A stretch of DNA of 34,660 nucleotides from ANME-2 cluster archaeon. GTDB lineage: Archaea > Halobacteriota > Methanosarcinia > Methanosarcinales > Methanocomedenaceae. The notes below the pieces were generated by a model. The model was not told the origin of the DNA, ran no database searches, and saw nothing but the letters and a program-made list of their open reading frames with translations. The DNA lies in NCBI GenBank assembly GCA_023544495.1, contig JAMJFV010000002.1, positions 1 through 34,660 of the forward strand, in the 5' to 3' direction. How positions within the stretch are numbered: position 1 is the stretch's first letter; each line of letters begins with the position of its first letter. The position numbers and the translations under genes were made by a program. This document shows, piece after piece, positions 6,823 to 34,228 of the stretch.

Positions 6823-7351
6823 ATCAGGCAGACCATCAAATATTCGGATAAGAAGGTTGGATAAAGTATCCAGGTTTTCTGGAGTGAACGGTTATTATGA
6901 AAGGTTAAGGAGTTGGGACAATTCCCAGCTCCTAAAAATTTCCCGGCTTTAAAAATATCCTAACGTTATCTAAATCCAGATATAAAGCAAATAGTCCAGT
7001 TGCCAATGCAACTACAAATCTGTATTAATCATTGAAATCTATGTCTTTATATTTTTCCGATACTGATCGACAAATATTAACACAGATTTCACCTAAAGTC
7101 GGTGTCAACAAAATAACTGATTTTTGGAACAGTGTCTTTCTTAATAATAGTAAAATACTATTAGTCATTATCGTATTCTGTGACAAACGATAATGAAGTG
7201 ACTGATGAAGAATTGGAAGACCTTCTGGCACGGCAGGCAGAACAGCAACCAGCGAAGTGCAGGATGAAAACTGCCAAACAGTTCATTAAGAAAGATATTG
7301 TGCCACCGGACGAGGGACTATGAATCATGCATTGAAGGATGGAGATACAAA

Positions 7352-8512
7352 ATGGTATATGTAACAGGTTTTCGGTGTTTCAAGTGTGGGACGCATCATT
7401 TGCCCCAAGAGATAGAGAACAAGCCGATACCCCGATGTTCGGTCTGTAACTCCGGGCTGGATGCAGAATATGATTACGGTTCGATCAGGAAGTCACTGCT
7501 GAGGGACCCGTTCATGCGCGAGAGTCCTACCCACTGGAAATACTGGGCGTTCTTACCTGTGCGCGATCTGTCCCACATCATTACCATGGGCGAGGGAGGT
7601 ACCCCTCTGCTTGAGAGCAACTCGCTGACCCGGGATATCGGTTGCGGACGGATGCTGGTGAAATATGAAGCCATGAATCCCACCGGCTCCTTCAAGGACC
7701 GGGGCTCTTCCCTTGAGATTACCAAGGCGATGGAGTACGGAAAGAAACGGGTTGTGCTTGCATCCACGGGAAACATGGGTGCTTCTGTGGCAGCGTATGC
7801 CGCATTTGCCGGACTTGATTGTATCGTGTTCGTACCCAATATTGTAGGTTCGGCCAAGATCAAGCAGATCAAAGCGTATGGGGCTGATATACGGTTTGTA
7901 AATGGTGATTATTCACATGCGATGAAAGAGGCGGAAAACTATGTAATATCACACCTTGACTCGTTCCTTACCGGCGATTATCCCTGGAGGGGGGAAGGTA
8001 CCAAGACGGTAGGTATGGAAATAGCTGACCAGCTGTACTGGACCGTACCTGATGTGGTTATTGCGCCGGTGGGCAACGGCACCCTGATCTGGGGCATCTT
8101 TGAAGCGTTCAGGGATATGTATGCTGTGGGAGTCATAGAGCGTAAACCTGCGATTTTCGGAGTACAGGTGGATGCCTGCAGACCTGTTGTGGATGCATGG
8201 GAGAAGGGAGCGTCCGAGATCATTGCTGTTGAGGACCCCCAGACTGTAGCGACTGCTATTGCATGCGGGGATCCGATCGACGGGTTGGGGGCATTGCGAG
8301 CTGTGAGGGAGACAGGAGGACAGGGGGTGAGCGTGTCTGATGGTGAGGTGATACAGGCGCGGGATTTTTTGGCAGAGAATGGTATTTTTGTTGAGCCGAG
8401 TGGTGCGGTGGCGTATGCGGGGGCGCGGAGGGTAAAAGATGGATTGGATGATAAGACTGTGGTGTGTATGGCAACAGGGCACGGGCTAAAGGATATGTAC
8501 GGAATTGAGTAA
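7352..8512 (+). CDS. Threonine synthase family PLP enzyme with an N-terminal zinc ribbon (threonine synthase or its cysteate synthase paralogue)
   Basis: Contains FRCFKCG...CSVCNSG, then the PLP-lysine motif NPTGSFKDRG and STGNMGAS. The ATG at 7352, preceded by ggagat, is preferred over the TTG at 7298. Confidence 0.85.
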   Translation: MVYVTGFRCFKCGTHHLPQEIENKPIPRCSVCNSGLDAEYDYGSIRKSLLRDPFMRESPTHWKYWAFLPVRDLSHIITMGEGGTPLLESNSLTRDIGCGRMLVKYEAMNPTGSFKDRGSSLEITKAMEYGKKRVVLASTGNMGASVAAYAAFAGLDCIVFVPNIVGSAKIKQIKAYGADIRFVNGDYSHAMKEAENYVISHLDSFLTGDYPWRGEGTKTVGMEIADQLYWTVPDVVIAPVGNGTLIWGIFEAFRDMYAVGVIERKPAIFGVQVDACRPVVDAWEKGASEIIAVEDPQTVATAIACGDPIDGLGALRAVRETGGQGVSVSDGEVIQARDFLAENGIFVEPSGAVAYAGARRVKDGLDDKTVVCMATGHGLKDMYGIE

Positions 8513-14660: not shown

Positions 14661-14756
14661 AGATCAAGTAGTCACTGTTTGATAGTGCAAGAAGTATTAC
14701 TCTGTATCAGTACATAAGGTAACCTTGTGTAGAAGGCACAATTGGAAGTAACCTAC

Positions 14757-15914
14757 ATGCCTGTCGACCCTATCTGCAAACGTGAAGTCCCACTGACAAC
14801 TCCGTATATTACCGAATCAGAAGGACAAACATATTATTTTCATGATCCTGAATGCAAAAAGAAATTCGATGACATGGCAAAGAACATTGTCAGGGTCAAA
14901 CGCAGCCTGAAAGATAAAGAGAAGATATCATTCGGACGGCTGCGAAAGGATATTATCAAAGCAGGTATCTGTGCGGCATGTGGCGCCTGTGCTGCCAGCT
15001 GTCCCTCCATAATCATGGATGGCGAAAAGCCCAAGCTGATAGGGCCGTGTACAGCCTGCAGTATCTGCTACAACCAGTGTCCCCGCACCATTACCACCGA
15101 GAACGGGCTTATCGGCAGGATACGATATCCCTATGCAGCCCGGTCGACCATAAAAGAGATCAGGGGACAGGACGGGGGTGTGGTCACGGCCCTGCTGGCC
15201 TATGCACTGGAGGAAGGCCTCATAGACTGTGCCATCGTGACAGTAAAATCCAGGGATGACCCCTGGAGACCCGTACCTGTCATTGCCACAACCCTCGATG
15301 AATTGATGGAGTCTGCCGGCAGCATCTACACTCACAGTATGACCATCCAGGCCCTTATGAACGCTGTCCAGCAGGGTATGCGGAGTATTGCTTTCGTGGG
15401 ACCATCCTGCAATATCGATGCGGTCTATAAGATATACAAAAGCCCTTACGGATTGCTGCACATGTTCATGCGTGCCAATATTCTTCCCCTGGGCTTGTTC
15501 TGCATGGACACGTTCTCCCATGAAGGTATTGAAGAGTTTGTTGCATCCAAGAACATAAAACTGTCCGAAATTGAGAGCATGAAGATACGGCGGGGAAAGA
15601 TCGAACTGGAAACTGGCGGGGAGACCATGGTGTACTACCTCGGTGAACTTGATCCTTACCGGAGTTCTTCATGCAAGTACTGTACCGACCTGACTGCCGA
15701 GAATGCGGCTATCAGTTTTGGGGGTGTTGGCACTCCTGACGGCTGGACCACGGTATTTACCAGGACTGGCCGGGGGTACGAAATATTCAACGAGGCGGTA
15801 GAGGCTGGTTATATCGAATCCAGGGACCTTGAAGAAAAGGAGATGACAAGGGTATTGAACCTTGCCAGGATGAAAAAGGTCCAGAAGTATGGCGTCATGC
15901 GCAGGGAAAAATAA
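14757..15914 (+). CDS. YHS/TRASH-like domain + 2x[4Fe-4S] ferredoxin + coenzyme F420 hydrogenase/dehydrogenase beta subunit (FrhB/FpoF-like) fusion protein
   Basis: N-terminus MPVDPICKREVPLTTPYITESEGQTYYFHDPECKKKFDD (YHS-like). Cluster motifs CAACGACAASCP and CTACSICYNQCP. FrhB N- and C-domains (DGGVVTALLAYALEEGLIDCAIV; FVGPSCNIDAV). The ATG at 14757 is preferred over the TTG at 14742. Confidence 0.8.
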   Translation: MPVDPICKREVPLTTPYITESEGQTYYFHDPECKKKFDDMAKNIVRVKRSLKDKEKISFGRLRKDIIKAGICAACGACAASCPSIIMDGEKPKLIGPCTACSICYNQCPRTITTENGLIGRIRYPYAARSTIKEIRGQDGGVVTALLAYALEEGLIDCAIVTVKSRDDPWRPVPVIATTLDELMESAGSIYTHSMTIQALMNAVQQGMRSIAFVGPSCNIDAVYKIYKSPYGLLHMFMRANILPLGLFCMDTFSHEGIEEFVASKNIKLSEIESMKIRRGKIELETGGETMVYYLGELDPYRSSSCKYCTDLTAENAAISFGGVGTPDGWTTVFTRTGRGYEIFNEAVEAGYIESRDLEEKEMTRVLNLARMKKVQKYGVMRREK

Positions 15915-17371: not shown

Positions 17372-17659
17372 ATGCAAAAAATGACTTTTGAACAGAATAT
17401 GGAAGCCATGAGTAAGATGACTCCTGAAGAAAGAGTAGCAAAAGTGGGGGAACTTACGAAGATTTGCATCTGTGCTGACTGCCCTACTTATGTTGGCACG
17501 GGAGAAAAGAGCTTATTATTCTGTGCAACCGAAAAAAGTAAAATAATAAAAAAAGAGAAAGGCTGTATCTGTCCGGGTTGCCCTGTTTATGAGAATATGG
17601 GTCTGAGATGGGATTACTATTGCACCAGAGGTTCTGGTAAAGAACAGGCTGGGAAATAA
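17372..17659 (+). CDS. DUF2769-type cysteine-rich protein
   Basis: ICICADCPTY...LLFCA....KGCICPGCPVY....DYYC matches the DUF2769 pattern as I remember it. SD site ggggtgaaaatATG. Confidence 0.7.
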   Translation: MQKMTFEQNMEAMSKMTPEERVAKVGELTKICICADCPTYVGTGEKSLLFCATEKSKIIKKEKGCICPGCPVYENMGLRWDYYCTRGSGKEQAGK

Positions 17660-23386: not shown

Positions 23387-23778
23387 TTATTCGCTTTTAA
23401 CTCCTTCCCCAGACCTCATTATTCTATCTATCAAACCATACTCCACTGCATCCTCTGCTGACAAGAAGAAGTCCCTGTCCGTATCTTTCTCAATGACCTC
23501 TATGGGTTGCCCCGTGTGATGGACCAGGATTTCATTGAGATGTTCTTTGACCCTTGCCATCTCTTTTGCCTGAATAGCGATATCCGATGCCTGTCCCTGT
23601 GCGCCCCCGAGGGGCTGGTGAATCATCACCCTTGCATTGGGAAATGCCATCCTTTTTCCCTTTGCTCCCGCTGCCACACCTGTGAGGAGTATTATCTGGT
23701 CGTCCAGCAGGCGGGAATAAATATCCAGCGTATGCGGGGGGTTTGCTCTGATACATAAAGCATTTTTGGAATTACCAT
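23387..23778 (-). pseudogene. clpP: ClpP protease subunit relic: N-terminal frameshift plus an internal deletion removing the catalytic Ser region
   Basis: aaaggaggacaaaacaATG gives [15 protein letters not shown]. The frame is then lost at a C6 run. It resumes as [17 protein letters not shown] joined directly to [22 protein letters not shown]...[20 protein letters not shown]. By comparison with the canonical family layout as I recall it, roughly 75 residues that normally contain the GxAASMG serine are absent. Confidence 0.75.
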
Positions 23779-24297: not shown

Positions 24298-24825
24298 CTA
24301 TCTAAGGTCACTTGACCATACGTAATCATTGGTTTTGTCTTTGAAGATATCTTTTGGCAGAGCGTGGCAGTCGATGCATCCTTCTACCTTCCCCTCGGCA
24401 TCTATCGTGCCATCTGGCTGGTACTTAGCCCAGAACCAGTCATTGTGAGCCGGATCGTAGCCTTTTTCTTTGTACATAACTGTTATTGCGGCCAGTTTTT
24501 TGTCAGGACCATAGTTTTCTTTTACTATTATGCTCTCTTCAGGCAGGATTCCTTTTTTGCCTTCTATTGCTGCAAAAGCGTCATCGTTCACGTATGTTGT
24601 CAGAAAAGCACCATGCGGTTCGCTTGGTTTTTCTGTTGACTTTGGATATATTTCACCCGTGCCGGGCCACTTCTTCCAGTTTTTATAGTTCTCTTTTATT
24701 ATAAAGTCGTATACAGATTTCCCATCAGCCTTGAGTTCTGTCTCTGGTGGCGCACTTACACAGCCCAGAAAAATTGACACCATAAATATAGCCAATATTG
24801 CGTATGCAATGCTTTTCATTTCCAT
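24298..24825 (-). CDS. Cytochrome P460 / c'-beta family haem lipoprotein
   Basis: Lipobox SIFLGC. HGAFLTTYVNDDAF...LPEESIIVKE...ITVMYK....NDWFWAKY.PDG...G....CIDCH (a single CxxCH near the C-terminus) follows the P460-family pattern. The GGGAG SD site favours the ATG at 24825; the track start is 24840. Confidence 0.7.
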   Translation of the reverse strand: MEMKSIAYAILAIFMVSIFLGCVSAPPETELKADGKSVYDFIIKENYKNWKKWPGTGEIYPKSTEKPSEPHGAFLTTYVNDDAFAAIEGKKGILPEESIIVKENYGPDKKLAAITVMYKEKGYDPAHNDWFWAKYQPDGTIDAEGKVEGCIDCHALPKDIFKDKTNDYVWSSDLR

Positions 24826-25036
24826 AATTTCTACTCCCATCTATTTATTCATTGAGATGACATATATAACTATCTTTCTCGAACTATTAATTGACCTTCC
24901 ATTCCTAAATCCCTGTGATTTGCCACTTCTCACCACATCTTAGAATATTCCTGATTTATCCGCAACAAATTCCATAACCTGATTTTTCCCGGAAGACGCC
25001 ACGTTAACCCTTTGATCATATCCTTCCACAAACAGG

Positions 25037-25423
25037 TCATGTGTACCCTGCATGCCCATAACTCTCGTAAAAAGGCTCGAAAATGATAACCTCATCTCCC
25101 TCGTTTATGATTGCAAGCATGGCAGCCATTAAAGCTTCCGTGGCTCCGCAAGTTACCGTAATTTCAGTTTCTGGGTCAGCTTCGATGTGATTGTATTTGA
25201 GGGCTTTTCGAGAGATTGCATTTCGGAGATCTTTTCCGCCCCACGTGATGGAATATTGATTGTAGTCTTCCAAAATTGCAGATGCGGCAACGTGCTTTAT
25301 CTCATCCGGAGCCGGAAAGTCAGGAAATCCCTGGGCAAGGTTCACGGCATGACGTGTTACTGCAAGCCGGGACATGTCGCAAATTACCGATTCGGTAAAA
25401 TGTTCCAGTCTGTGAGATAACAT
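25037..25423 (-). pseudogene. Class I/II aminotransferase, N-terminal fragment of about 125 aa only
   Basis: INLAQGFPDFPAP....QY....G...LR.AI......VTCGATEAL......INEGDEVIIFEPFYESY is a typical YbdL/KAT-type N-terminus. The ORF then stops. The PLP-lysine half is not found in any frame downstream. Confidence 0.7.
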
Positions 25424-25426
25424 CGA

Positions 25427-26125
25427 TCAGTACCCCGGAAAATTTTCACTATGTATCATAGCGTCTTGAATTTTCAATGTCTTAAGAATTTCAATTGAAC
25501 TTGTTACCAGGGACGGTGGACCGCATACATAGAAAACACATTCTTTATAATCGGGTATCTCTTCTTCAATAATCTGAACGTCTATATGGCCTCTCCTTCC
25601 TTTCCATTTCTCATCCGGCTGGGACAGTGTATGGATTACCCTGAGGTTTTGATTTGCCTTTTCAAGGCGGTCCAACTCTTCCTTGAAAACTATGTTTTCT
25701 TCATTCCTGTTTCCGAATAAAAAAGTAATACGGGAGTTCATTCCCTTATCCGTGCAGTATTTAATCATGCTCCTGAGAGGCGTTATGCCGATGCCCCCTG
25801 TTATCATCACTACTCTGGGATATTCGCCTTTGAAGGTAAAATCTCCATAGGGAGCATTAAGGTATGCCCAGTCTCCGATTTTGAGCATGTCAAGAGCGAC
25901 TGAGAACTCATGGTCTGTGATCTTTTTTGTGAATTCAATGAACTCTTTTTCTGTCGGACTGCTTGATATCGTAAAATGCTTTGTGATTTTTTTACCCTCG
26001 TTCAGAATTGTTACGAATAAAAATTGACCGGGATCGTAGTCAAACCCCTTCGGTCTCCTGAACCTGAAGCTCTTTACATCTGGTGTCCGTTTTATTATCT
26101 CTTCCACTCTGGTTTCAAATTTCAT
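25427..26125 (-). CDS. FNR-like FAD/NAD(P)-binding oxidoreductase (PyrK/sulfhydrogenase-gamma type without the C-terminal Fe-S domain)
   Basis: Contains VKSFRFRRP..FDY.PGQFLFV, HFTISSSP (RxxS-like FAD site) and ITGGIGITPLRSM (the NAD(P) GGxGxxP motif). Confidence 0.8.
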   Translation of the reverse strand: MKFETRVEEIIKRTPDVKSFRFRRPKGFDYDPGQFLFVTILNEGKKITKHFTISSSPTEKEFIEFTKKITDHEFSVALDMLKIGDWAYLNAPYGDFTFKGEYPRVVMITGGIGITPLRSMIKYCTDKGMNSRITFLFGNRNEENIVFKEELDRLEKANQNLRVIHTLSQPDEKWKGRRGHIDVQIIEEEIPDYKECVFYVCGPPSLVTSSIEILKTLKIQDAMIHSENFPGY

Positions 26126-26128
26126 AAA

Positions 26129-26332
26129 TCAACCAACCTCTTTTCTACTGCTATCGAACTCTGCCGCTTCCTTCGCTAAAAAGTACCCCATCACCGTTCT
26201 GATGCTGACAGTAGCACCAAGGAAGAGAATCTCTTCCCGGCTGGGAGCAACAATCGTCCTCAAGATGTATGTGGACAAGAGCCCAGGGGGAAAACCTGAC
26301 TTTTTTGACCTTTTCTTAATGGGTACGACCAT
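26129..26332 (-). CDS. Hypothetical small protein (67 aa)
   Basis: It fills the gap between the GltB-like and FNR-like genes (18 nt and 3 nt spacers). No recognisable motif; it may not be translated. Confidence 0.3.
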   Translation of the reverse strand: MVVPIKKRSKKSGFPPGLLSTYILRTIVAPSREEILFLGATVSIRTVMGYFLAKEAAEFDSSRKEVG

Positions 26333-26350
26333 TGTATATGCCTCTATTCC

Positions 26351-27835
26351 CTAAACATGTGTGATCTCCGTATGATTTGAGATCTCAGAATTTGTCGTAC
26401 ACAGATCCTTTATGCTCAATTTATGCACATCATCATTTCCCGTCAATCGTGCAAAATCCTTTAATTCCTCCGTGGAAACCCTTAAAAAATTTTCCAATTT
26501 CTTGGCAGAGTACTCAACTTTTAACCTTCCCCTTAATTCCGGGTTATGTGTAGTGACGCCGACAGGGCATTTACCCGTGTCGCACAGCCTGTACTGCTGG
26601 CATGCGCATGCCATCAGCGCTGCAGTTCCTATTGCAACAGCGTCAGCCCCTAAAGCTAACGCTTTAATGAAATCCGAGGACACCCGAAGACCTCCTGTGA
26701 TAATAAGGGATATGTCTTTTATCCCTTTCCTGTCAAGATATTTCCTTGCCCTGTATAGGGCAAAAACAGTAGGTACTGACGTTGCCTGTTTTACGAACCT
26801 GGGCGAAGCCCCGGTTGCGCCCGGTCTTCCATCGATGGTTATAAAATCAGGTCCCGCATAGGTCGCTATTTCCAGGTCATCTTCTATATGACCTGCTGCG
26901 ATTTTTATCCCGATGGGCTTTCCATCGGATTTTTCTCTTAGCCAGTCCACTTTCTTTTTCAGATCATCCCTGTTTCTTATGTCTTCAAAATGAGACGGAC
27001 TCACAATATCGGTCCCTTCAGGGAAACCTCTGATTTCCGCAATCTCCTGGGTCACCTTCTCTGCAGGCAAATGACCTCCCATGCCTGGTTTTGACGACTG
27101 ACCGATCTTTATTTCTATGGCATCCACTTTCCTGAGGTTCTCATCAGTGACGCTGTACCTGTTGGGCACGTATTCAAAAATGTATCTATAGGCATTGTCA
27201 AGAGACTCCTTCATAATCCCGCCTTCTCCTGAACCCATGGCGGTTCTGGCAGCAGCGCTCCCTTTTGCTAAAGCAGTTTTAACTTCTTTTGACAGAGCGC
27301 CAAAAGACATATGGGTTACATAAATAGGTGTTTCGATTATAAGAGGATGCTTCGCCGCAGGACCTATTGTGGTTCTGGTATTCACAGGCTCGTCTTTATT
27401 TAAGGGAATTTTCGCCAGTTGAGCACCTTTTATCAGAATGTCATCCCATGAGAGCACATTTTTTGTCGTCCTCATTGGTTCGATGATTGACTCCCCGGTC
27501 ACGGAAATCGTATGGATATCCGCCATGTATATTTCCAGGTCATCCCTGTCCCGTTTCCATTCTGCCAGATATCCGCCCAGATCAATTTTAGCAGTGGAAA
27601 TTGTCACTTTATTTTTGGCTCCGCAATGGGGGCAGGTCATGATCTCATCTATCTGCGCAATCTCCTCTTCCTCTTTGACAGGCTTTAAGTGTGATTTATC
27701 CGACGCACAAATGGGGCACTTCCACTCATCAGGGAAGTCTTCAGGTTTTGTGCCGGGTTTTATCCCTGTAAGCGAGTTCCCCCGCGTATCATCATATTCG
27801 AAAACATTGCAAACATCGCATCTGTATTGTGTCAT
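26351..27835 (-). CDS. Rubredoxin-domain + zinc-ribbon + glutamate synthase FMN/Fe-S domain (GltB domain-2-like) protein
   Basis: N-terminus YRCDVCNVFEYDD...DFPDEWKCPICAS, then TCPHCGAKNK. The core has SSKPGMGGHLPAEKV, ITIDGRPGATGASP, TGGLRVSSDFIKALALGADAVAIGTA and the cluster motif CDTGKCPVGVTT. Confidence 0.85.
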   Translation of the reverse strand: MTQYRCDVCNVFEYDDTRGNSLTGIKPGTKPEDFPDEWKCPICASDKSHLKPVKEEEEIAQIDEIMTCPHCGAKNKVTISTAKIDLGGYLAEWKRDRDDLEIYMADIHTISVTGESIIEPMRTTKNVLSWDDILIKGAQLAKIPLNKDEPVNTRTTIGPAAKHPLIIETPIYVTHMSFGALSKEVKTALAKGSAAARTAMGSGEGGIMKESLDNAYRYIFEYVPNRYSVTDENLRKVDAIEIKIGQSSKPGMGGHLPAEKVTQEIAEIRGFPEGTDIVSPSHFEDIRNRDDLKKKVDWLREKSDGKPIGIKIAAGHIEDDLEIATYAGPDFITIDGRPGATGASPRFVKQATSVPTVFALYRARKYLDRKGIKDISLIITGGLRVSSDFIKALALGADAVAIGTAALMACACQQYRLCDTGKCPVGVTTHNPELRGRLKVEYSAKKLENFLRVSTEELKDFARLTGNDDVHKLSIKDLCTTNSEISNHTEITHV

Positions 27836-27854
27836 TTATATCTACTTCCTCGAA

Positions 27855-28844
27855 TCACCTGAAACCGATATATAATAAGGCGATCGCAAGAATGACAAAA
27901 AGCGCTGAGAGCACTTTTTCCAGAACTGCGGTATTCATTCTTGCTGCGACATACGGTGCAAGCTGACCGCCGATTATGACCGCAGGAACTGTCATGGCAA
28001 TAATGTTCCACGGTGTCTCTACACCCCCAGTTGCAGACGCCCTTAAAAGATGTGCGGTTGACGCCACAATGGCTGTTCCCGCCACGATAATATGATTTGT
28101 TCCGACTCCTACTTTAGCCGGAATGCCCGAGATGATCATTGAAACCACGCCCATTTCCCCGATTCCGAACCCCGACACCCCCTGGAATATACCTCCCAGA
28201 GAATACCCGAACAGCCTGGTCCTGTATGCACACCTGCAGTAATTGTAAACTTTTCCATTCCTGTCTGTAAGTGTTACATTTTCTGGAGTTGCCTTATGTT
28301 GATGTGTGACGGTAAGGCTTTTTTTGGATGCCAGTTCTTCCCCAAATGCCCTGATCCTTTCAGCATGCCCTAAAGAATAGACTGAAATAAGCAATGCAAA
28401 GCTTATGAGAAAATAGATGATTTTTTCCGGGAAATAGAAGGATACAACTGAAGAAATTATAACCACAGGCACCGCTCCGGTAAGAGAGCGAAAAGCCATT
28501 TTCTTATCTACGAGGCCAAATCGCATAAAGGCAAAAGTGGAACTTGATATCCCGAAGGATTCGGTTATCAATCCCAGCATCACGCTCTGCCCCGGAGTGA
28601 GCCCGAATGCAAGTGCAGGGAATACGAGTGCAAAAAAAGGGACAAAAAGGGCCGCGCCGCTTATGCCCACCGTATTTACGACAGTTGCGATCACGATGGC
28701 AACAGGGAACATCCACCAGAATTCAGTCCAGTAACCAGCATCACTCTTGACAATACCTGTCAGGATAAAAAGAAAAATCGGGATTATGAGAAGAATTAAA
28801 TAATTCTCGTATTCAAGTGCTTTATCTGATATTCGCTTTAGCAT
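27855..28844 (-). CDS. TauE/SafE (TSUP) family anion permease
   Basis: A multi-TM protein with two internally similar halves: GISGAALFVPFFALVFP..., GLITESFG, and GFGIGEMGVVSMI in the second half. A roughly 50-aa hydrophilic loop with Cys/His residues links them. Confidence 0.8.
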   Translation of the reverse strand: MLKRISDKALEYENYLILLIIPIFLFILTGIVKSDAGYWTEFWWMFPVAIVIATVVNTVGISGAALFVPFFALVFPALAFGLTPGQSVMLGLITESFGISSSTFAFMRFGLVDKKMAFRSLTGAVPVVIISSVVSFYFPEKIIYFLISFALLISVYSLGHAERIRAFGEELASKKSLTVTHQHKATPENVTLTDRNGKVYNYCRCAYRTRLFGYSLGGIFQGVSGFGIGEMGVVSMIISGIPAKVGVGTNHIIVAGTAIVASTAHLLRASATGGVETPWNIIAMTVPAVIIGGQLAPYVAARMNTAVLEKVLSALFVILAIALLYIGFR

Positions 28845-28929
28845 GAAATCGTTACTTTTTGATACTACAAACTCTCATTTATCCCGCCAGAGTGCGATTG
28901 TAATTTAACTTTCACTCTTCTCAAGCTTC

Positions 28930-29034
28930 TTATTTGGACTTTTCATGTTCTTTTTTTGCGTGCTCCATTAGCTCTGATTCAGACTCAAATGTAGCACCGC
29001 ACATATTACACTTGTATTGCTTTTCTTCAGCCAT
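28930..29034 (-). CDS. Micro-protein (34 aa) with a classical C2H2 zinc-finger pattern
   Basis: Not in the ORF track (under 60 aa). SD site gggaggtgacaagatATG. MAEEKQYKCNMCGATFESESELMEHAKKEHEKSK fits Y-x-C-x2-C-x3-F-x5-L-x2-H-x4-H exactly. Confidence 0.55.
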   Translation of the reverse strand: MAEEKQYKCNMCGATFESESELMEHAKKEHEKSK

Positions 29035-29129
29035 ATCTTGTCACCTCCCTTTGGCAGCAGTAGCTTTTCATTGCGATATATTATATTCCCTCACTGATAT
29101 TTAACGCACATTTGCATTAAGTCCTATTT

Positions 29130-29363
29130 TCACGGTGCTTTCCCAATATCACAGAAGTACATATCCTTCAGCTTATATCTGGCATATACCATACAAGCAG
29201 GGCATTTACAGCCTTTTTTTACGATTTTTTCTGGCGATTTACCCCTTGCACAGAACAGCATTGGCTGCTGGGGATACGGCAGACTTGGACAGGTTCCGCA
29301 GTAATTCATGCAGATAGCCAGATTTTCCTTTGTATCATCAACTGGCATTTCAAATACCTCCAA
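29130..29363 (-). CDS. DUF2769-type cysteine-rich protein (second copy)
   Basis: ICMNYCGTCPS....MLFCA.....KKGCKCPACMVY......MYFC shows the same Cys spacing as 17372..17659. Confidence 0.7.
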   Translation of the reverse strand: MEVFEMPVDDTKENLAICMNYCGTCPSLPYPQQPMLFCARGKSPEKIVKKGCKCPACMVYARYKLKDMYFCDIGKAP

Positions 29364-29375
29364 AAGAATTAAAAA

Positions 29376-29888
29376 TCACATCAGCATTTTCTTAAACATA
29401 TTCCGGACCATCATTCTCTTCAGGATGAAATAATCCTGTGTAGCAGCCATCATCGCACGCTTTTCCATCATCTTCCTATCTTCAGGCCACGCTGACATTA
29501 TTTTCTTCAAAGCTCCCATCAGGATTTCTCTCTTTTCTTTTGGAAGTTTTGTAATTTGATCGGTCCTGGTTTTAACAACCTTGATCCTGTCTTCTTCAGA
29601 CAGTTCTGATATCCCGTCGAGCATGTCGGTTATTGCGGCTATCCTTTTGTCTTCTGGCAGAACGGAAAATTGCTCCATCCGTGCCCCCAGGATCTGACGT
29701 CTGTCTTCCTCGGGTTTTGATGCCAGCATTTGCATCATGTCGGTTATTTGTGCGAGCTTTTCAGCTTTTGCCTTGCGTTCCTGGCATGCAGGGCACTTCT
29801 CAAAATGTTCTTCGAAAGACGCTGCATCTTTACCGGCACATTCTTCACATTCTTTTGCTAACTTTTCTAATTCTTCTCTTGCAGTCAT
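29376..29888 (-). CDS. Helical-repeat protein with an N-terminal CxxC...CxxC site, hypothetical
   Basis: CEECAGK...FEKCPACQ, then repeated about 25-aa helical units marked by KPEEDR / LPEDKR / LSEEDR / LPKEKR / WPEDRK. It ends 12 nt before the DUF2769 gene. Confidence 0.55.
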   Translation of the reverse strand: MTAREELEKLAKECEECAGKDAASFEEHFEKCPACQERKAKAEKLAQITDMMQMLASKPEEDRRQILGARMEQFSVLPEDKRIAAITDMLDGISELSEEDRIKVVKTRTDQITKLPKEKREILMGALKKIMSAWPEDRKMMEKRAMMAATQDYFILKRMMVRNMFKKMLM

Positions 29889-29955
29889 AAAATAATTCGC
29901 CCCTAAGTGATATTTGCAGTTTTTATGATATATAGTTTCTTATATTATTTTTTCC

Positions 29956-30036
29956 TCAGCAATCCTTGAATTTCTTTCCTGATCCACATGTGTCATCCGG
30001 TGCAAGGGTCTTTTTTGGTGTGCAACATCCAGCCAT
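29956..30036 (-). CDS. Micro-ORF (26 aa) with a SEC-C-like metal-binding motif
   Basis: SD site ggaggtaagacaaatATG. MAGCCTPKKTLAPDDTCGSGKKFKDC; the CGSGKKFK.C part resembles the SecA C-terminal SEC-C motif. Coding status is unproven. Confidence 0.4.
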   Translation of the reverse strand: MAGCCTPKKTLAPDDTCGSGKKFKDC

Positions 30037-30172: not shown

Positions 30173-30532
30173 ATGGCTGAACCAAAAATATTGATAGTAT
30201 ATGCATCGAGAACAGGTAACACGGAAAAACTCGCACAGGCGGTCGCTGAAGGGGCAAGGAGTGCTGGCGGGGTCAGTGTCGAGTTGAAGAGAGCAAGGGA
30301 TACTAAACCCTCAGATGCAGATGCTGACGCTTTTGCATTTTGGTCTCATTCGGCTTTTGAATATATGGCAGGGGAGCTTAAAAGCCTATTTGAAGATTTT
30401 TATATTGTAAGGGATAAACTGGCAGGCAAACCTGTACTGCTTTTCACCACAGGACAGGGAGGGCAGAGTTCGACTCTGGCATCGATAGACAGGGACGTGG
30501 GTGTATTCAATCCGGGTCAGGACTGGTATTAA
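30173..30532 (+). CDS. Flavodoxin-family protein (short, 119 aa)
   Basis: SD site gggaggtaaaatATG. KILIVYASRTGNTEKLAQAVAEG is the FMN phosphate-binding loop T/S-x-T-G-x-T. The C-terminal third looks divergent or possibly truncated. Confidence 0.7.
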   Translation: MAEPKILIVYASRTGNTEKLAQAVAEGARSAGGVSVELKRARDTKPSDADADAFAFWSHSAFEYMAGELKSLFEDFYIVRDKLAGKPVLLFTTGQGGQSSTLASIDRDVGVFNPGQDWY

Positions 30533-30533
30533 A

Positions 30534-31178
30534 TTATTTAATTATTTTAATAAATCCATCTCTGATTTTATGCCCTATTTCATTTGCTATCTCAATGACA
30601 TCCTTCTGGTCTTCTATAGTCGTATATTTATCCTTCGAAGGCACAGCACCTTTGCTGAACAATAACGGAACTGCGCTTATCTTGCAGGTACCTCCATATC
30701 CGCATGAAAGACATGAGACGTTCCCGGTTCCGCTGAGCTTACCGATGACATTAATTCCTTCCATTTCCATAAAAGCAGCAATCTGATCCATGGCATGATC
30801 TACACTTGGTATTCCTCGTCCAATCCCGACTGCCACAGCTACTCCAATTTTACCTTTATTTAGCATTTTTTGATGATGCATGGAGTACATCCGTTCTGTC
30901 AGCATCTTAGTTCTTGAGTCAAGAGTGCCGTAAGTAGGATAGCCACCAATAATTAGAGCAGCACATTCTTTGATCTTATTTTCGATTATATACCAGTCGT
31001 CCTGCTGCTTGCAGATGTTGTCCCCGGCACAGCCAAGACATGCCCTGCATGGATGGATATCGTACTCTGAAAGTTTAATAAATTCATAATCAAGGCCTGT
31101 AGCTTCAAGCACTGTTTTAATCAGCCTGTCGGTATTGCTGTTTTTAACCGGACTCCCGCTTATTCCTAACACTTGCAT
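30534..31178 (-). CDS. isf: Iron-sulfur flavoprotein (Isf family, NADPH-dependent FMN reductase fold)
   Basis: MQVLGISGSP.KNSNTD, the compact cluster motif CRACLGCAGDNIC (CX2CX2CX5C), and IIGGYPTY. Confidence 0.85.
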   Translation of the reverse strand: MQVLGISGSPVKNSNTDRLIKTVLEATGLDYEFIKLSEYDIHPCRACLGCAGDNICKQQDDWYIIENKIKECAALIIGGYPTYGTLDSRTKMLTERMYSMHHQKMLNKGKIGVAVAVGIGRGIPSVDHAMDQIAAFMEMEGINVIGKLSGTGNVSCLSCGYGGTCKISAVPLLFSKGAVPSKDKYTTIEDQKDVIEIANEIGHKIRDGFIKIIK

Positions 31179-31906
31179 TTTGAATCGCCTGCTATCATTT
31201 TGCTGTTCTCTATTCTCTCTTTGATCAGCTTTCCGATCCTCTGCGCCTCAGCCATTACCAGGAGTTCATCCTTAACCGACCTGTAGCTTTTCAGGAATTT
31301 AGCAGAGCCATGTGCATATGGCTTGTTATCAGGGAGAAGTTCAAGATACCCCTTGTACGCCTCCTCAACGCCCAACTCCATGCCTGTCAGTTCTTTCGAG
31401 TAGGCATTCCAGACAGTATAATTGCATGTCTCACCCGGTCCGCAAACAAAACAGCACGGTGTTCCTTTGGCTGTCATGCTGCCTACTATTTCCATCCCTC
31501 CGGCACGAAGGGCATTTCCCATCCACTCTGCAACCATCTTTTCAGCAGCAACCCCTACAGCCACTGTCGCTACGATTTTTCCGCGCATCAGGAGTTTTAC
31601 ATGCCTCTTAGAATACAGCCTCTCTATAAACGCTTTCATAAAAGCGCTTGCAGCACCATAGTATGTTGGCGACCCGACCACGATAGCATCTGCTTCCATG
31701 ACTTTCTTTGAGAGCCACTTGAAATGATCGTTGAGGACGCATTCATTGGTCTGGACACATTTCATGCATGCTATGCAGGGACCTACATTTATTTCCGATA
31801 ATTTGACAAATTCAGTCTCTGCACCCGTAGCATCAAGTATTGCATTTATCAATGCATCAGTATTGCTATTCTCTGTGGGACTTCCACTCACTCCAAGAAC
31901 TTTCAT
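31166..31906 (-). CDS. isf: Iron-sulfur flavoprotein paralogue (Isf family)
   Basis: MKVLGVSGSP.ENSNTD, CIACMKCVQTNEC (CX2CX2CX5C), and VVGSPTYYG. It overlaps the downstream isf by 13 nt. Confidence 0.85.
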   Translation of the reverse strand: MKVLGVSGSPTENSNTDALINAILDATGAETEFVKLSEINVGPCIACMKCVQTNECVLNDHFKWLSKKVMEADAIVVGSPTYYGAASAFMKAFIERLYSKRHVKLLMRGKIVATVAVGVAAEKMVAEWMGNALRAGGMEIVGSMTAKGTPCCFVCGPGETCNYTVWNAYSKELTGMELGVEEAYKGYLELLPDNKPYAHGSAKFLKSYRSVKDELLVMAEAQRIGKLIKERIENSKMIAGDSKCKC

Positions 31907-31971: not shown

Positions 31972-32172
31972 TTATTGTAGCCTGTGAACAATTCCATCAC
32001 TCCAAGCACTTCTACGATCTGGCTCTCTGTAATCCCATCCGCAACCTGATTTGCATGTGGTATTTGCGCCGTCCGGGAATGCTGCAAGGAGTTGTTCCGG
32101 AGTCTTTATCGGGAACTTCCCACCTGCAAGTCCTCCAACGATCTGGGCATGGATTTCATCTTGGACGCTCAT
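31972..32172 (-). CDS. MTH865-like small protein whose C-terminal third appears replaced; possibly a relic
   Basis: [37 protein letters not shown] resembles the MTH865 family N-terminal half as I remember it. The tail [14 protein letters not shown]... does not. An AhpD/CMD-like tail is readable in another frame over the same bases. Confidence 0.4.
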
Positions 32173-33871: not shown

Positions 33872-34228
33872 ATGATAAAAGTGGCGATTGTAATTTTAGC
33901 AGATATAGAAACGCATGAAGATACGGCAAGAGTTCACAATGCACTTCTTGCAGCAAAAGAATTCAAAGATGCAAAAGATGAATTTAAGCTCATCTTTGAT
34001 GGAACTGGAACCAAGTGGATTAAAGTGCTTTCTAAACCTGAGCACATGTTTCATGAACTATTTGAATCATTAAAGGGCAATTCTACCGAAGTTTGCAGCT
34101 ATTGCGCAGGGGCTTTTGGGGTCAAAGAGAGTGTAACGGCATCCAGCATTCCTCTGATAGAAGAATATGAGGGACACCCGAGCTTCAGGGAACTGCTGTT
34201 GAAAAGTTATCAGATAATTACATTTTAA
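33872..34228 (+). CDS. DsrE/DsrF-like family protein
   Basis: 118 aa. IKVAIVILADIETHED..R..NAL..A.E........KLIFDGTGTKW, with a later CSYC. The layout resembles small DsrE-fold proteins. This is a recollection-level match only. Confidence 0.6.
   Translation: MIKVAIVILADIETHEDTARVHNALLAAKEFKDAKDEFKLIFDGTGTKWIKVLSKPEHMFHELFESLKGNSTEVCSYCAGAFGVKESVTASSIPLIEEYEGHPSFRELLLKSYQIITF

Follow-up and report, generated by a model that had tools for sequence, protein, structure and literature searches.

A recurring archaeal gene set around a rubredoxin-fused glutamate synthase-domain enzyme, a possible redox-stress module, and apparent deletion scars beside it in an ANME-2 cluster archaeon

Introduction

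What, if anything, joins nine tightly packed minus-strand genes for Cys-rich proteins, a permease and flavoenzymes that fit no obvious pathway? We asked this of positions 25037–30036 of a 34,660-bp stretch of DNA (hereafter, the window), a single contig of a metagenome-assembled genome (MAG) of an ANME-2 cluster archaeon, with proteins MCL7412054-061. Candidatus Methanoperedens sequences fill the 90%-identity clusters of the window proteins, and the contig also carries genes for CDP-archaeol synthase, an archaeal TGT and an FrhB-like protein, consistent with an archaeal origin. Methanoperedens-type archaea oxidize methane with nitrate at oxic-anoxic interfaces. A sequence-only reading of this DNA had seen in the nine genes one or two transcription units for NAD(P)H-driven amino- or oxo-acid chemistry, with a TauE/SafE permease of a family linked to sulfite and sulfonate export. 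On balance, we favor a different explanation, in which the region is a mosaic of a conserved redox-stress module (29888–26351) and deletion scars (26332–25037) from an unrelated amine operon. By analogy with bacterial systems, the core of this module may be an archaeal variant of an oxidative-stress electron-supply module, built around an enzyme that joins a rubredoxin to a glutamate-synthase domain (Rd-GltB2).

Results

The conserved core consists of five genes, encoding CxxC170 (a Cys/His helical-repeat protein), DUF2769a, a C2H2 micro-protein, the TauE permease and Rd-GltB2. We compared the window with loci from diverse genomes (L001–L080) and with archaeal loci fetched via Rd-GltB2 (L081–L094 and L141), and found the core again, with its genes permuted, in relatives with Rd-GltB2 proteins 74–94% identical to that of the window. 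The closest relative found, L081 (94% identical), has the order CxxC170, DUF2769a, C2H2, TauE, Rd-GltB2, CorA, aldehyde dehydrogenase, class-III transaminase and a saccharopine-dehydrogenase-like gene. The order is Lpd-like, Rd-GltB2, CxxC170, DUF2769a and TauE in L082–84 (Rd-GltB2 86% identical in L082–83); CxxC170, DUF2769a, DUF1622, DUF2769b, a rubredoxin-fused thiamine pyrophosphate (TPP) enzyme, Rd-GltB2 and a 440-amino acid (aa) aminotransferase in L088–90 and several metagenome contigs; and DUF2769b, TPP enzyme, Rd-GltB2, a ZIP-like protein, CxxC170 and DUF2769a in L141, with FMN_dh, isocitrate dehydrogenase and aconitase genes opposite. Adjacent CxxC170 and DUF2769a genes, with Rd-GltB2 nearby, are therefore seen in at least four gene orders (window/L081, L082–84, L088–90 and L141).

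Tightly spaced co-directional genes are ordinary in prokaryotes; it is the recurrence of the core gene set in other genomes that goes beyond chance. Synonymous divergence (dS) is saturated already at 86% protein identity, with ratios of nonsynonymous to synonymous divergence (dN/dS) of 0.04–0.25, and because the adjacencies have been kept through many rearrangements at saturated dS, we argue that they are under selection. The sequence-only reading had let its cluster stand or fall with synteny elsewhere, and its genes are indeed syntenic in L081, L082–84, L088–90, L093, L094 and L141. It had also taken the combination with small metal-binding proteins to be undescribed, which holds for archaea in the literature: the archaeal combination of Rd-GltB2 with small Cys-rich partners is new, while the enzyme family and its link to stress have already been published for Clostridioides difficile.

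A 33-residue remnant of an aconitase C-terminus lies ~70–170 nt upstream of CxxC170 in L088–L090 (e.g., L088 6301–6399), an aconitase gene lies ~3 kb downstream of the cluster in the window, and aconitase and isocitrate dehydrogenase genes are adjacent in L141; the neighborhood with the 2-oxoglutarate branch seems to be old and repeatedly eroded. Methanococcoides-type loci (L001 4602–10145 and L091 9083–15383) hold, in this order, genes for TusA, a DsrE-like protein, a free rubredoxin, Rd-GltB2, fumarase and a fumarate-reductase/succinate-dehydrogenase flavoprotein, with sulfur-carrier proteins in the place of the window's TauE and Cys-rich proteins.

Rd-GltB2 consists of an N-terminal rubredoxin, a linker of ~50–100 aa, and a glutamate-synthase domain of the type that holds flavin mononucleotide (FMN) and a [3Fe-4S] cluster. 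The rubredoxin match (PF00301) covers residues 3–48, the synthase domain (PF01645) scores 334 bits, and the four rubredoxin cysteines (C6, C9, C40 and C43) and the cluster motif C412-x5-C418-x4-C423-P are invariant in 12 homologues. Residues 173–466 align to the FMN domain of GltS in the PDB, with KPGxGGxLPxxKV and C-x5-C-x4-C-PVGV kept. Homologues across methanogen orders are 70–94% identical, and UniRef gives homologues the name 'Archaeal glutamate synthase'.

A canonical glutamate synthase (GOGAT) was considered and rejected: the FMN/3Fe-4S synthase domain is present, but the amidotransferase domain, the GXGXG domain and GltD were not found. In tblastn searches of the window and 139 loci, within 10 kb of a homologue, the amidotransferase (E. 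coli GltB 1–430), GXGXG (GltB 1201–1486) and GltD queries gave no match to these parts, the E. coli GltB pieces recovering FMN domains only, and PF00310 is missing from the gene tables of the fetched loci. The sequence-only reading had named a place beside the usual GltB partner domains as a refutation; none of these domains lies within 10 kb of any homologue in the set. Rd-GltB2 resembles the synthase domain of GltS and the split archaeal GOGAT subunit of the MJ1351 (Q58746) type in its PF01645 match, its FMN/2-oxoglutarate-site motifs and its 3Fe-4S cysteines; it differs from GOGAT in that amidotransferase, central and GXGXG domains and GltD were not found in cis or within 10 kb. Methanocaldococcus jannaschii MJ1351 has a ferredoxin-type domain where Rd-GltB2 has rubredoxin.

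The genomic context of bacterial homologues points to oxidative stress. Among the same-strand immediate neighbors of homologues in the 80 diverse genomes, FUR (8/62) and rubrerythrin (6–7/62) are the most frequent families, ahead of TPP enzymes with an N-terminal Rieske domain (4/62). Hidden Markov model (HMM) scans of the loci found Fur-family genes in 14 and rubrerythrin in 18, adjacent in 12 and fused in 6. The six fusions come from Clostridia/Lachnospiraceae (L017, L026, L029, L030, L032 and L057) and carry rubrerythrin on the C-terminus of the GltB2 domain, giving proteins of 525–719 aa with the Pfam domains Glu_synthase, Rubrerythrin and RUBY_RBDX; several of the fusion genes are preceded by a Fur-family gene. 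We found no mention of this fusion in PMC11980386 or bioRxiv 10.1101/2024.09.17.613384. Six of the eight closest non-methanogen homologues (57–63% identical) are flanked by rubrerythrin, and clostridial homologues, 53–57% identical to the window protein over its full length, lie beside Fur-family regulators and rubrerythrin. The partners seen in the window (FNR-like reductase, TauE, DUF2769 and aminotransferase) were never beside an Rd-GltB2 homologue in the 80 diverse genomes (tblastn).

Four bacterial loci (L013, L073, L076 and L080, from Rhodopirellula, Ilumatobacteraceae, Mycobacterium and Roseibium) have a GltB2 without rubredoxin beside a Rieske-TPP fusion of 645–743 aa. This pair mirrors the rubredoxin-fused pyruvate-oxidase-like TPP enzyme beside Rd-GltB2 in Methanosarcinales-type loci (L085 and L088), and TPP enzyme and GltB2 seem to be kept as a pair in Bacteria and Archaea alike, one redox domain replacing the other.

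One bacterial enzyme of this architecture has been studied. CD0828 of C. difficile (CD630_08280, 480 aa), known as an 'oxidative stress glutamate synthase' and, in one paper, as GltD, is encoded by the fourth and last gene of the rbr-perR-sor operon, under the control of PerR and OseR, and has an N-terminal rubredoxin, FMN, a C-x5-C-x4-C motif and a predicted [3Fe-4S] cluster (PMC11980386). Survival of its deletion mutant in H2O2 is down 3–5 logs, the mutant is air-sensitive like an rbr mutant, and the purified protein is slowly reduced by NADH (PMC11980386). Rubrerythrin (Rbr) and CD0828 together showed more-than-additive NADH-dependent H2O2 reduction, and glutamate was suggested as an electron source (bioRxiv 10.1101/2024.09.17.613384). 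CD0828 and the window's Rd-GltB2 have a common architecture (480 versus 494 aa), the CD0828-type linker being flexible and ~40 aa or more; their likeness rests on this architecture and on homologues in Fur/rubrerythrin loci. The window differs in that perR, rbr and sor are not adjacent, the neighbors being DUF2769, CxxC170, C2H2, TauE and Isf-type genes instead. In bacterial Fur(PerR)-rubrerythrin loci and the clostridial fusions, by comparison, the homologous enzyme is a conserved neighbor or fusion partner of a peroxidase; neither Fur nor rubrerythrin was found in the window, where the candidate O2/H2O2 reductases nearby are limited to two Isf-type flavoproteins.

These two FMN reductase genes lie just upstream of the cluster on the same strand. 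They share the compact CxxCxxCx5C motif with Isf of Methanosarcina thermophila; we propose that they may receive electrons from Rd-GltB2 or DUF2769. Isf is reported to reduce O2 and H2O2. In a Methanotrichaceae locus (L094), a 60%-identical FMN_red gene, followed by MTH865 and a DUF7347 regulator, lies ~1 kb from Rd-GltB2, after a HAD gene, and the whole trio falls within ~1–2 kb. The window also has an MTH865-family gene (31972–32172, minus), which matches residues 1–43 of the 79-aa L094 orthologue and is truncated or frameshifted, and a flavodoxin-like open reading frame (ORF; 30173–30532, 119 aa) that covers positions 1–95 of a 143-position profile only.

DUF2769 proteins accompany these enzymes in several settings. 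Both copies in the window score far above the PF10967 cut-off of 22.8 bits (DUF2769a 53.6 bits, DUF2769b 65.2 bits) and have the conserved Cys pattern of the family, which includes eight conserved Cys. Only three papers were found to mention DUF2769, and they assign it no function. DUF2769a lies directly after CxxC170 in every locus that carries the pair, and in Methanoperedenaceae (L093) and Methanotrichaceae (L094) the gene immediately upstream of Rd-GltB2 encodes DUF2769b. A DUF2769b-subtype alignment retrieved 45 metagenome loci, where the neighbors of DUF2769b include Rd-GltB2, rubredoxin-fused pyruvate-oxidase-like TPP enzymes, Isf-like FMN reductases, FAD_binding_2 flavoproteins, fumarase and rubrerythrin. 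The window itself repeats the design of DUF2769 plus rubredoxin-fused flavoenzyme at a second site, where DUF2769b is followed after 7 nt by a rubredoxin-fused alpha-hydroxy-acid dehydrogenase (NCBI product name 'alpha-hydroxy-acid oxidizing protein'), and a 50%-identical FMN_dh stands beside CxxC170-DUF2769a in L141. The slot beside Rd-GltB2 that DUF2769 fills in the window is taken by a free rubredoxin in Methanococcoides and L001 and by a CDGSH/Fer4_19 protein in Methanoregula, the latter protein being fused to Rd-GltB2 in other homologues. It is chiefly on this replacement in situ that we base the proposal of DUF2769 as a small redox-metal partner, a candidate metal/Fe-S redox relay.

CxxC170 belongs to a family of 56 homologue clusters, nearly all exactly 170 aa long, restricted to Methanoperedens, Methanosarcinales, Methanococcoides and Thermoplasmata. 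Five residues are invariant (C14, C17, H28, C32 and C35, forming CxxC...HxxxCxxC). The AlphaFold2 (AF2) model is all-alpha with nine helices and a pLDDT of 92, which bears out the earlier label of a CxxC helical-repeat protein; a fold search with this model gave no PDB match at E<0.1, the best (TM<=0.33) being to generic helical repeats. The protein is under purifying selection (dN/dS 0.08 versus L082), and its Pfam matches are sub-threshold (DUF3106 and zf-HC2). It resembles the ZAS (RsrA-type) anti-sigma redox sensors in its invariant H-x3-C-x2-C, its upstream cysteines and a weak zf-HC2/RsrA match; it differs in scoring under the cut-offs (PF13490, 17.1 bits against 22.2; TIGR03988, 16.2 against 62.5) and in being a nine-helix repeat with no PDB counterpart. 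To our knowledge, archaea have no sigma factors. CxxC170 may be a candidate Zn/thiol redox sensor or scaffold.

The C2H2 micro-protein exceeds the cut-offs of both zf-C2H2_6 and zf-C2H2 (26.9 bits for the latter), and GGGAGGTGA lies upstream of its ATG. It is conserved in L081 (dN/dS 0.25), annotated in some Methanoperedens genomes and not present in L082; it represents a lineage-specific insertion, placed between DUF2769a and TauE.

TauE is a clear member of its family (PF01925, 85.3 bits against a gathering score of 32.6), with hydrophobic segments at both ends, a polar central loop of ~120 aa and a dN/dS of 0.07–0.11, and it is probably co-transcribed with Rd-GltB2 across a 19-nt gap. It adjoins the core only in the window, L081 and L082–83; the ZIP-like protein of L141 occupies a comparable place between Rd-GltB2 and CxxC170. 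The window's TauE shares its Pfam family with the sulfite/sulfoacetate exporters of bacterial taurine and sulfoacetate degradation but has no xsc, tpa, tauXY or safD-type neighbors, and its association with the core is limited to Methanoperedens-like relatives. Gene tables and profile searches revealed no sulfonate enzymes (Xsc, Tpa, SafD or SuyAB) in the window or related loci, and the sulfonate reading of the permease is not supported. Two further candidates for such chemistry were rejected. The TPP enzyme of the relatives scores 270 bits as sulfoacetaldehyde acetyltransferase (Xsc) against 496 bits as pyruvate oxidase, and the PALP enzyme at 7298–8512, a candidate for a coenzyme-M/sulfonate pathway, is threonine synthase (301 bits) rather than cysteate synthase (73 bits).

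The 3' end of the cluster has a different history. DNA collinearity between the window and L081 runs from 29604 to 26268 and breaks 66 nt into CorA. Residues 1–19 of the 67-aa ORF (26332–26276) match the CorA of L081 at 89%, and 26281–26144 matches the C-terminal 43–46 residues of DUF1622 proteins from L088 (63%) and L093 (52%), its Pfam DUF1622 match covering only positions 43–77 of the 78-position profile. From these matches we conclude that the 67-aa ORF is a fusion of CorA codons 1–19 to a DUF1622 tail (codons ~18–60); it thus appears to be a junction artefact, a rearrangement scar. The L081-like and L082-like blocks are separated by 140 nt of coding sequence for the last ~43 residues of a DUF1622 protein.

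On the other side of the junction, 26127–25056 is 86.6% identical in DNA to the FNR gene of L082 and the first 123 codons of its aminotransferase. In L082–83 these genes end a separate operon (L082 15169–21038; in L081, 4460–8459) of the order Aldedh-AT3-SacDH-FNR-AT381, which starts with aminobutyraldehyde-dehydrogenase-like and GntE-like transaminase genes (both over the NCBIfam cut-off; the GntE model is a guanitoxin model), has a saccharopine/carboxynorspermidine-dehydrogenase-like third gene, and closes with an FNR-like gene (232 aa) and an aminotransferase gene that is intact (381 aa). The operon may encode an amine or polyamine pathway of Methanoperedens relatives and is mostly deleted in the window. 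The window's FNR-like protein is 88% identical to the fourth gene of this operon (dN/dS 0.11), and the aminotransferase ORF is a pseudogene stub made up of the first ~123 of 381 codons plus 5 unrelated ones, 93% identical to L082 residues 1–123 (dN/dS 0.04), with the DNA match ending at 25056. L082 aminotransferase residues 124–381 have no match anywhere in the window, and the rest of CorA and the aldehyde dehydrogenase, class-III transaminase and saccharopine-dehydrogenase-like genes were not found on the contig. By sequence comparison, ~5 kb appears to have been lost relative to an L081-like ancestor, and it is because of this apparent deletion that the FNR-like and aminotransferase genes abut Rd-GltB2. 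Since dN/dS is low in both the FNR gene and the stub, the events are likely recent relative to the divergence from L082. Around the breakpoints, the search for repeats or mobile elements gave short chance matches only.

The FNR-like gene, although intact, is thus apparently inherited from the neighboring amine-type operon and not a conserved partner of Rd-GltB2, which it adjoins in no other locus examined. The NAD(P)H-driven trio of FNR, GltB and aminotransferase proposed by the sequence-only reading is not supported; the intact aminotransferase it suggested looking for in relatives exists as the 381-aa enzyme of L082–83 but in an operon separate from Rd-GltB2. Its suspicion of partial decay was right about the aminotransferase and fell short of the extent, the 67-aa ORF being a CorA'/DUF1622' scar as well.

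All nine ORFs were present on the minus strand in an ORF check of the window (Table 1), and with the ORF calls as listed the order and the gaps of 12, 19, 3 and 3 nt given by the sequence-only reading are correct. Profile searches on every member confirmed secure family assignments for DUF2769, C2H2, TauE, rubredoxin plus Glu_synthase, and FAD_binding_6 plus NAD_binding_1. For DUF2769a, a GGAGGT box 8 nt upstream of the ATG at 29348 and the 72-aa NCBI protein MCL7412060 place the true start at 29348, which makes the gap to CxxC170 27 nt, not 12 nt. The SEC-C-like micro-ORF exists as an ORF and is preceded by GGAGGT (30051–30046), but its PF02810 score of 19.5 bits, from 10 matched residues, lies under the gathering score of 20.4; it reads DTCGSGKKFKDC-stop and misses the first and last ligands of the C-x-C...C-[CH] set. 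The search of 1.84 billion representative proteins for homologues gave one irrelevant repeat-protein match, tblastn gave none in L001–L090, and the ORF is missing from the syntenic loci of relatives. It is a doubtful gene, probably outside the module, from which it is separated by an A/T-rich TATA-like tract upstream of CxxC170; a similar tract lies upstream of C2H2.

Table 1 Features of the cluster and related genes in the window
Feature	Coordinates	Strand	Basis or remark
DUF2769b	17372–17659	plus	PF10967, E 8e-18, 95 aa
Rubredoxin-fused FMN-dependent alpha-hydroxy-acid dehydrogenase, 409 aa	17667–18896	plus	PF00301 + PF01070
Aminotransferase stub, 128 aa	25037–25423	minus	class I/II profile positions 2–105 of 361
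FNR-like reductase, 232 aa	25427–26125	minus	FAD_binding_6 + NAD_binding_1
67-aa chimeric ORF	26129–26332	minus	apparent CorA start + DUF1622 tail
Rd-GltB2, rubredoxin + Glu_synthase, 494 aa	26351–27835	minus	PF01645, E 1e-99; PF00301, E 7e-15
TauE/SafE (TSUP) permease, 329 aa	27855–28844	minus	PF01925, E 7e-24
C2H2 micro-protein, 34 aa	28930–29034	minus	zf-C2H2_6, 29.3 bits (cut-off 25)
DUF2769a	ORF 29130–29363; gene 29130–29348	minus	PF10967, E 3e-14, 72 aa
CxxC170, 170-aa Cys/His helical-repeat protein	29376–29888	minus	homologue family + AF2 model
SEC-C-like micro-ORF	29956–30036	minus	26 aa from ATG 30036; 46 aa if the start is 30096
Two Isf-type FMN reductase genes	30534–31906	minus	PF03358; CxxCxxCx5C in both

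Elsewhere on the contig, only the C-terminal half of ClpP is encoded at 23387–23677 (minus; profile positions 94–180 of 182), its stop abutting the aconitase start at 23386, and 24298–24840 (minus; PF16694, E 7e-11) encodes a cytochrome P460-like protein with an N-terminal hydrophobic segment, in an archaeon that resembles nitrate-dependent methanotrophs; after it comes a multi-pass membrane protein of 149 aa that matches no family. An FrhB/FpoF-like F420-binding protein (14742–15914, plus) has an unusual N-terminal YHS domain and a ferredoxin-type segment; its gene lies 10 kb from Rd-GltB2 and adjoins Rd-GltB2 in none of L001–L090. A published proposal casts such FrhB-like modules as the subunit through which F420H2 would feed a putative F420-dependent glutamate synthase (PMC9295563). 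An Rfam search of the window gave no match in the cluster region. It gave one SNORD36 (C/D-box) match at 33969–34046 (plus; 30.2 bits against a gathering score of 30, E 0.48), which sits inside a DsrE-family gene (33872–34228) and is probably a false positive.

Discussion

In the mosaic that we favor, the scars explain the 3' end of the cluster and the core calls for a function. The domain content, the breakpoints, the synteny, the linkage and fusion of homologues to Fur or rubrerythrin genes and the published CD0828 phenotypes are observed. How electrons flow, what donates them and what DUF2769, CxxC170, TauE and the Isf-type proteins do we infer, by analogy with CD0828, as follows. Rd-GltB2 would take two electrons at its flavin site, either from a glutamate-like amino acid or from NADH, as CD0828 does in vitro; we propose the glutamate-like donor because the site is conserved and 2-oxoglutarate-node neighbors recur. 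The electrons would move from FMN via the [3Fe-4S] cluster to rubredoxin and from there to proteins that reduce H2O2 or O2, which in bacteria would be an adjacent or fused rubrerythrin and in the archaeon a DUF2769 relay followed by the Isf-type flavoproteins as candidate terminal reductases. CxxC170 could act as a thiol/zinc redox sensor or as a scaffold, and TauE as an accessory anion exporter, plausibly of the sulfite that forms when sulfide meets O2.

Several observations weigh against this proposal. Electron transfer from CD0828 to Rbr or Sor is slow in vitro, and the mBio authors doubt a physiological partnership (PMC11980386). The stress role would be carried over from bacterial homologues that are 53–63% identical, and rubrerythrin, superoxide reductase and Fur-family genes were not found on the contig or in L081–L094 and L141. 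The AF2 model of DUF2769a is unusable (pLDDT 41), and any cofactor of DUF2769 is putative. The link of TauE to the core is limited to the closest relatives. The synteny comes from related lineages and may in part reflect shared ancestry, and the breakpoints come from a single MAG assembly, in which an assembly artefact at the junctions may have arisen. Finally, the archaeal neighbors of Rd-GltB2 (aspartate-aminotransferase-like enzyme, aconitase, isocitrate dehydrogenase and fumarase/fumarate reductase) fit an anabolic role from 2-oxoglutarate to glutamate equally well.

That role is the main rival, and we consider it rather unlikely. Rd-GltB2 would here be an ammonia-dependent glutamate synthase in which low-potential electrons supplied through rubredoxin, and perhaps DUF2769, reduce 2-iminoglutarate to glutamate, with aminotransferases distributing the amino group. 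In the alignment, the motifs of the GltS 2-oxoglutarate site are identical (Q-x2-K-P-G-x-G-G-x-L-P, the Arg that follows, and C-x5-C-x4-C-P), including residues that we take to correspond to GltS Q969, K972 and R992. The 440-aa aspartate-aminotransferase-like gene adjoins in L088 and L094, with a fragment in L093, and enzymes that make 2-oxoglutarate are encoded close by: aconitase in the window, isocitrate dehydrogenase and aconitase in L141, and fumarase/fumarate reductase in L001 and L091. The UniRef name agrees as well. Against these stand the lack of amidotransferase, GXGXG and GltD partners in any locus, the bacterial homologues that lie within Fur/rubrerythrin loci or are fused to rubrerythrin, and the CD0828 phenotype, which is one of oxidative-stress sensitivity. 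Moreover, rubredoxin potentials are normally too high to drive reductive amination.

The small proteins invite a second alternative, in which CxxC170, DUF2769a, C2H2 and the permease handle Zn or Fe, buffering imported metal or delivering it to the rubredoxin and Fe-S sites. Cys/His metal-ligand patterns occur in all four small proteins, CxxC170 has an HxxxCxxC motif of zinc type, the membrane protein beside the CxxC170-DUF2769a pair shifts from TauE (window and L082) to ZIP-like (L141), and CorA follows Rd-GltB2 in L081. The ZIP match is weak, however (31 bits against a cut-off of 35), we know of no TauE protein that is a metal transporter, no metal-responsive regulator is adjacent, and the partners of DUF2769 are flavoenzymes generally, with or without rubredoxin domains. 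We think metal handling improbable.

It is more doubtful still that the genes form no functional unit at all and came together by accident in a rearrangement-prone region or a MAG chimera, their common order reflecting recent descent. The contig does come from a MAG and carries several truncated genes (ClpP', MTH865', the aminotransferase stub and CorA'/DUF1622'), and only close relatives have TauE and C2H2 together with the core; but the adjacencies of CxxC170 with DUF2769a and of DUF2769 with Rd-GltB2 survive at least four orders, family-level divergence and saturated dS, all intact genes are under purifying selection, and a 140-nt DUF1622 piece between two novel junctions would be untypical of an assembler artefact. 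Hardly credible, finally, is the reading of the nine genes as one or two operons of an NAD(P)H-driven amino-acid, oxo-acid or sulfonate pathway with TauE as sulfite or sulfonate exporter, for although the genes are tightly spaced and co-directional, the TauE membership is solid and the FNR-like gene is intact and under purifying selection, that gene and the aminotransferase, which is without two thirds of its length, come from another operon joined on by a deletion scar, the PALP, TPP-enzyme and sulfonate-enzyme results above offer no sulfonate chemistry, and synteny, with the FNR-like gene beside Rd-GltB2 in no other locus, largely refutes it.

The mosaic reading has consequences beyond this contig. 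Part of what looks like an operon is apparently a deletion scar, which advises caution in inferring pathways from adjacency alone. The remainder connects an archaeal cluster that had no annotation with a bacterial family whose genetic link to peroxide tolerance is itself recent, and the clostridial GltB2-rubrerythrin fusion is the strongest available hint that rubrerythrin is the acceptor in that family. In archaeal loci, the recurrent partners of Rd-GltB2 are DUF2769, the rubredoxin-/Rieske-fused pyruvate-oxidase-like TPP enzyme and enzymes around the 2-oxoglutarate/glutamate node.

From these pairings we tentatively draw a wider picture, in which we place limited confidence: ANME-2d archaea and Methanosarcinales may possess a metabolite-fuelled oxidant-defence network unlike the bacterial chain from NADH through NROR to rubredoxin. 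Rubredoxin-fused enzymes of GltB2 type, pyruvate-oxidase-like TPP enzymes and alpha-hydroxy-acid dehydrogenases would oxidize glutamate, pyruvate and 2-hydroxy acids; DUF2769, as an 8-Cys mini-redox family, would carry the electrons to O2/H2O2 reductases of Isf or rubrerythrin type; and CxxC170 would stand in for PerR as a thiol/zinc stress sensor. Whatever the fate of this wider picture, the DUF2769 and CxxC170 families gain a testable context.

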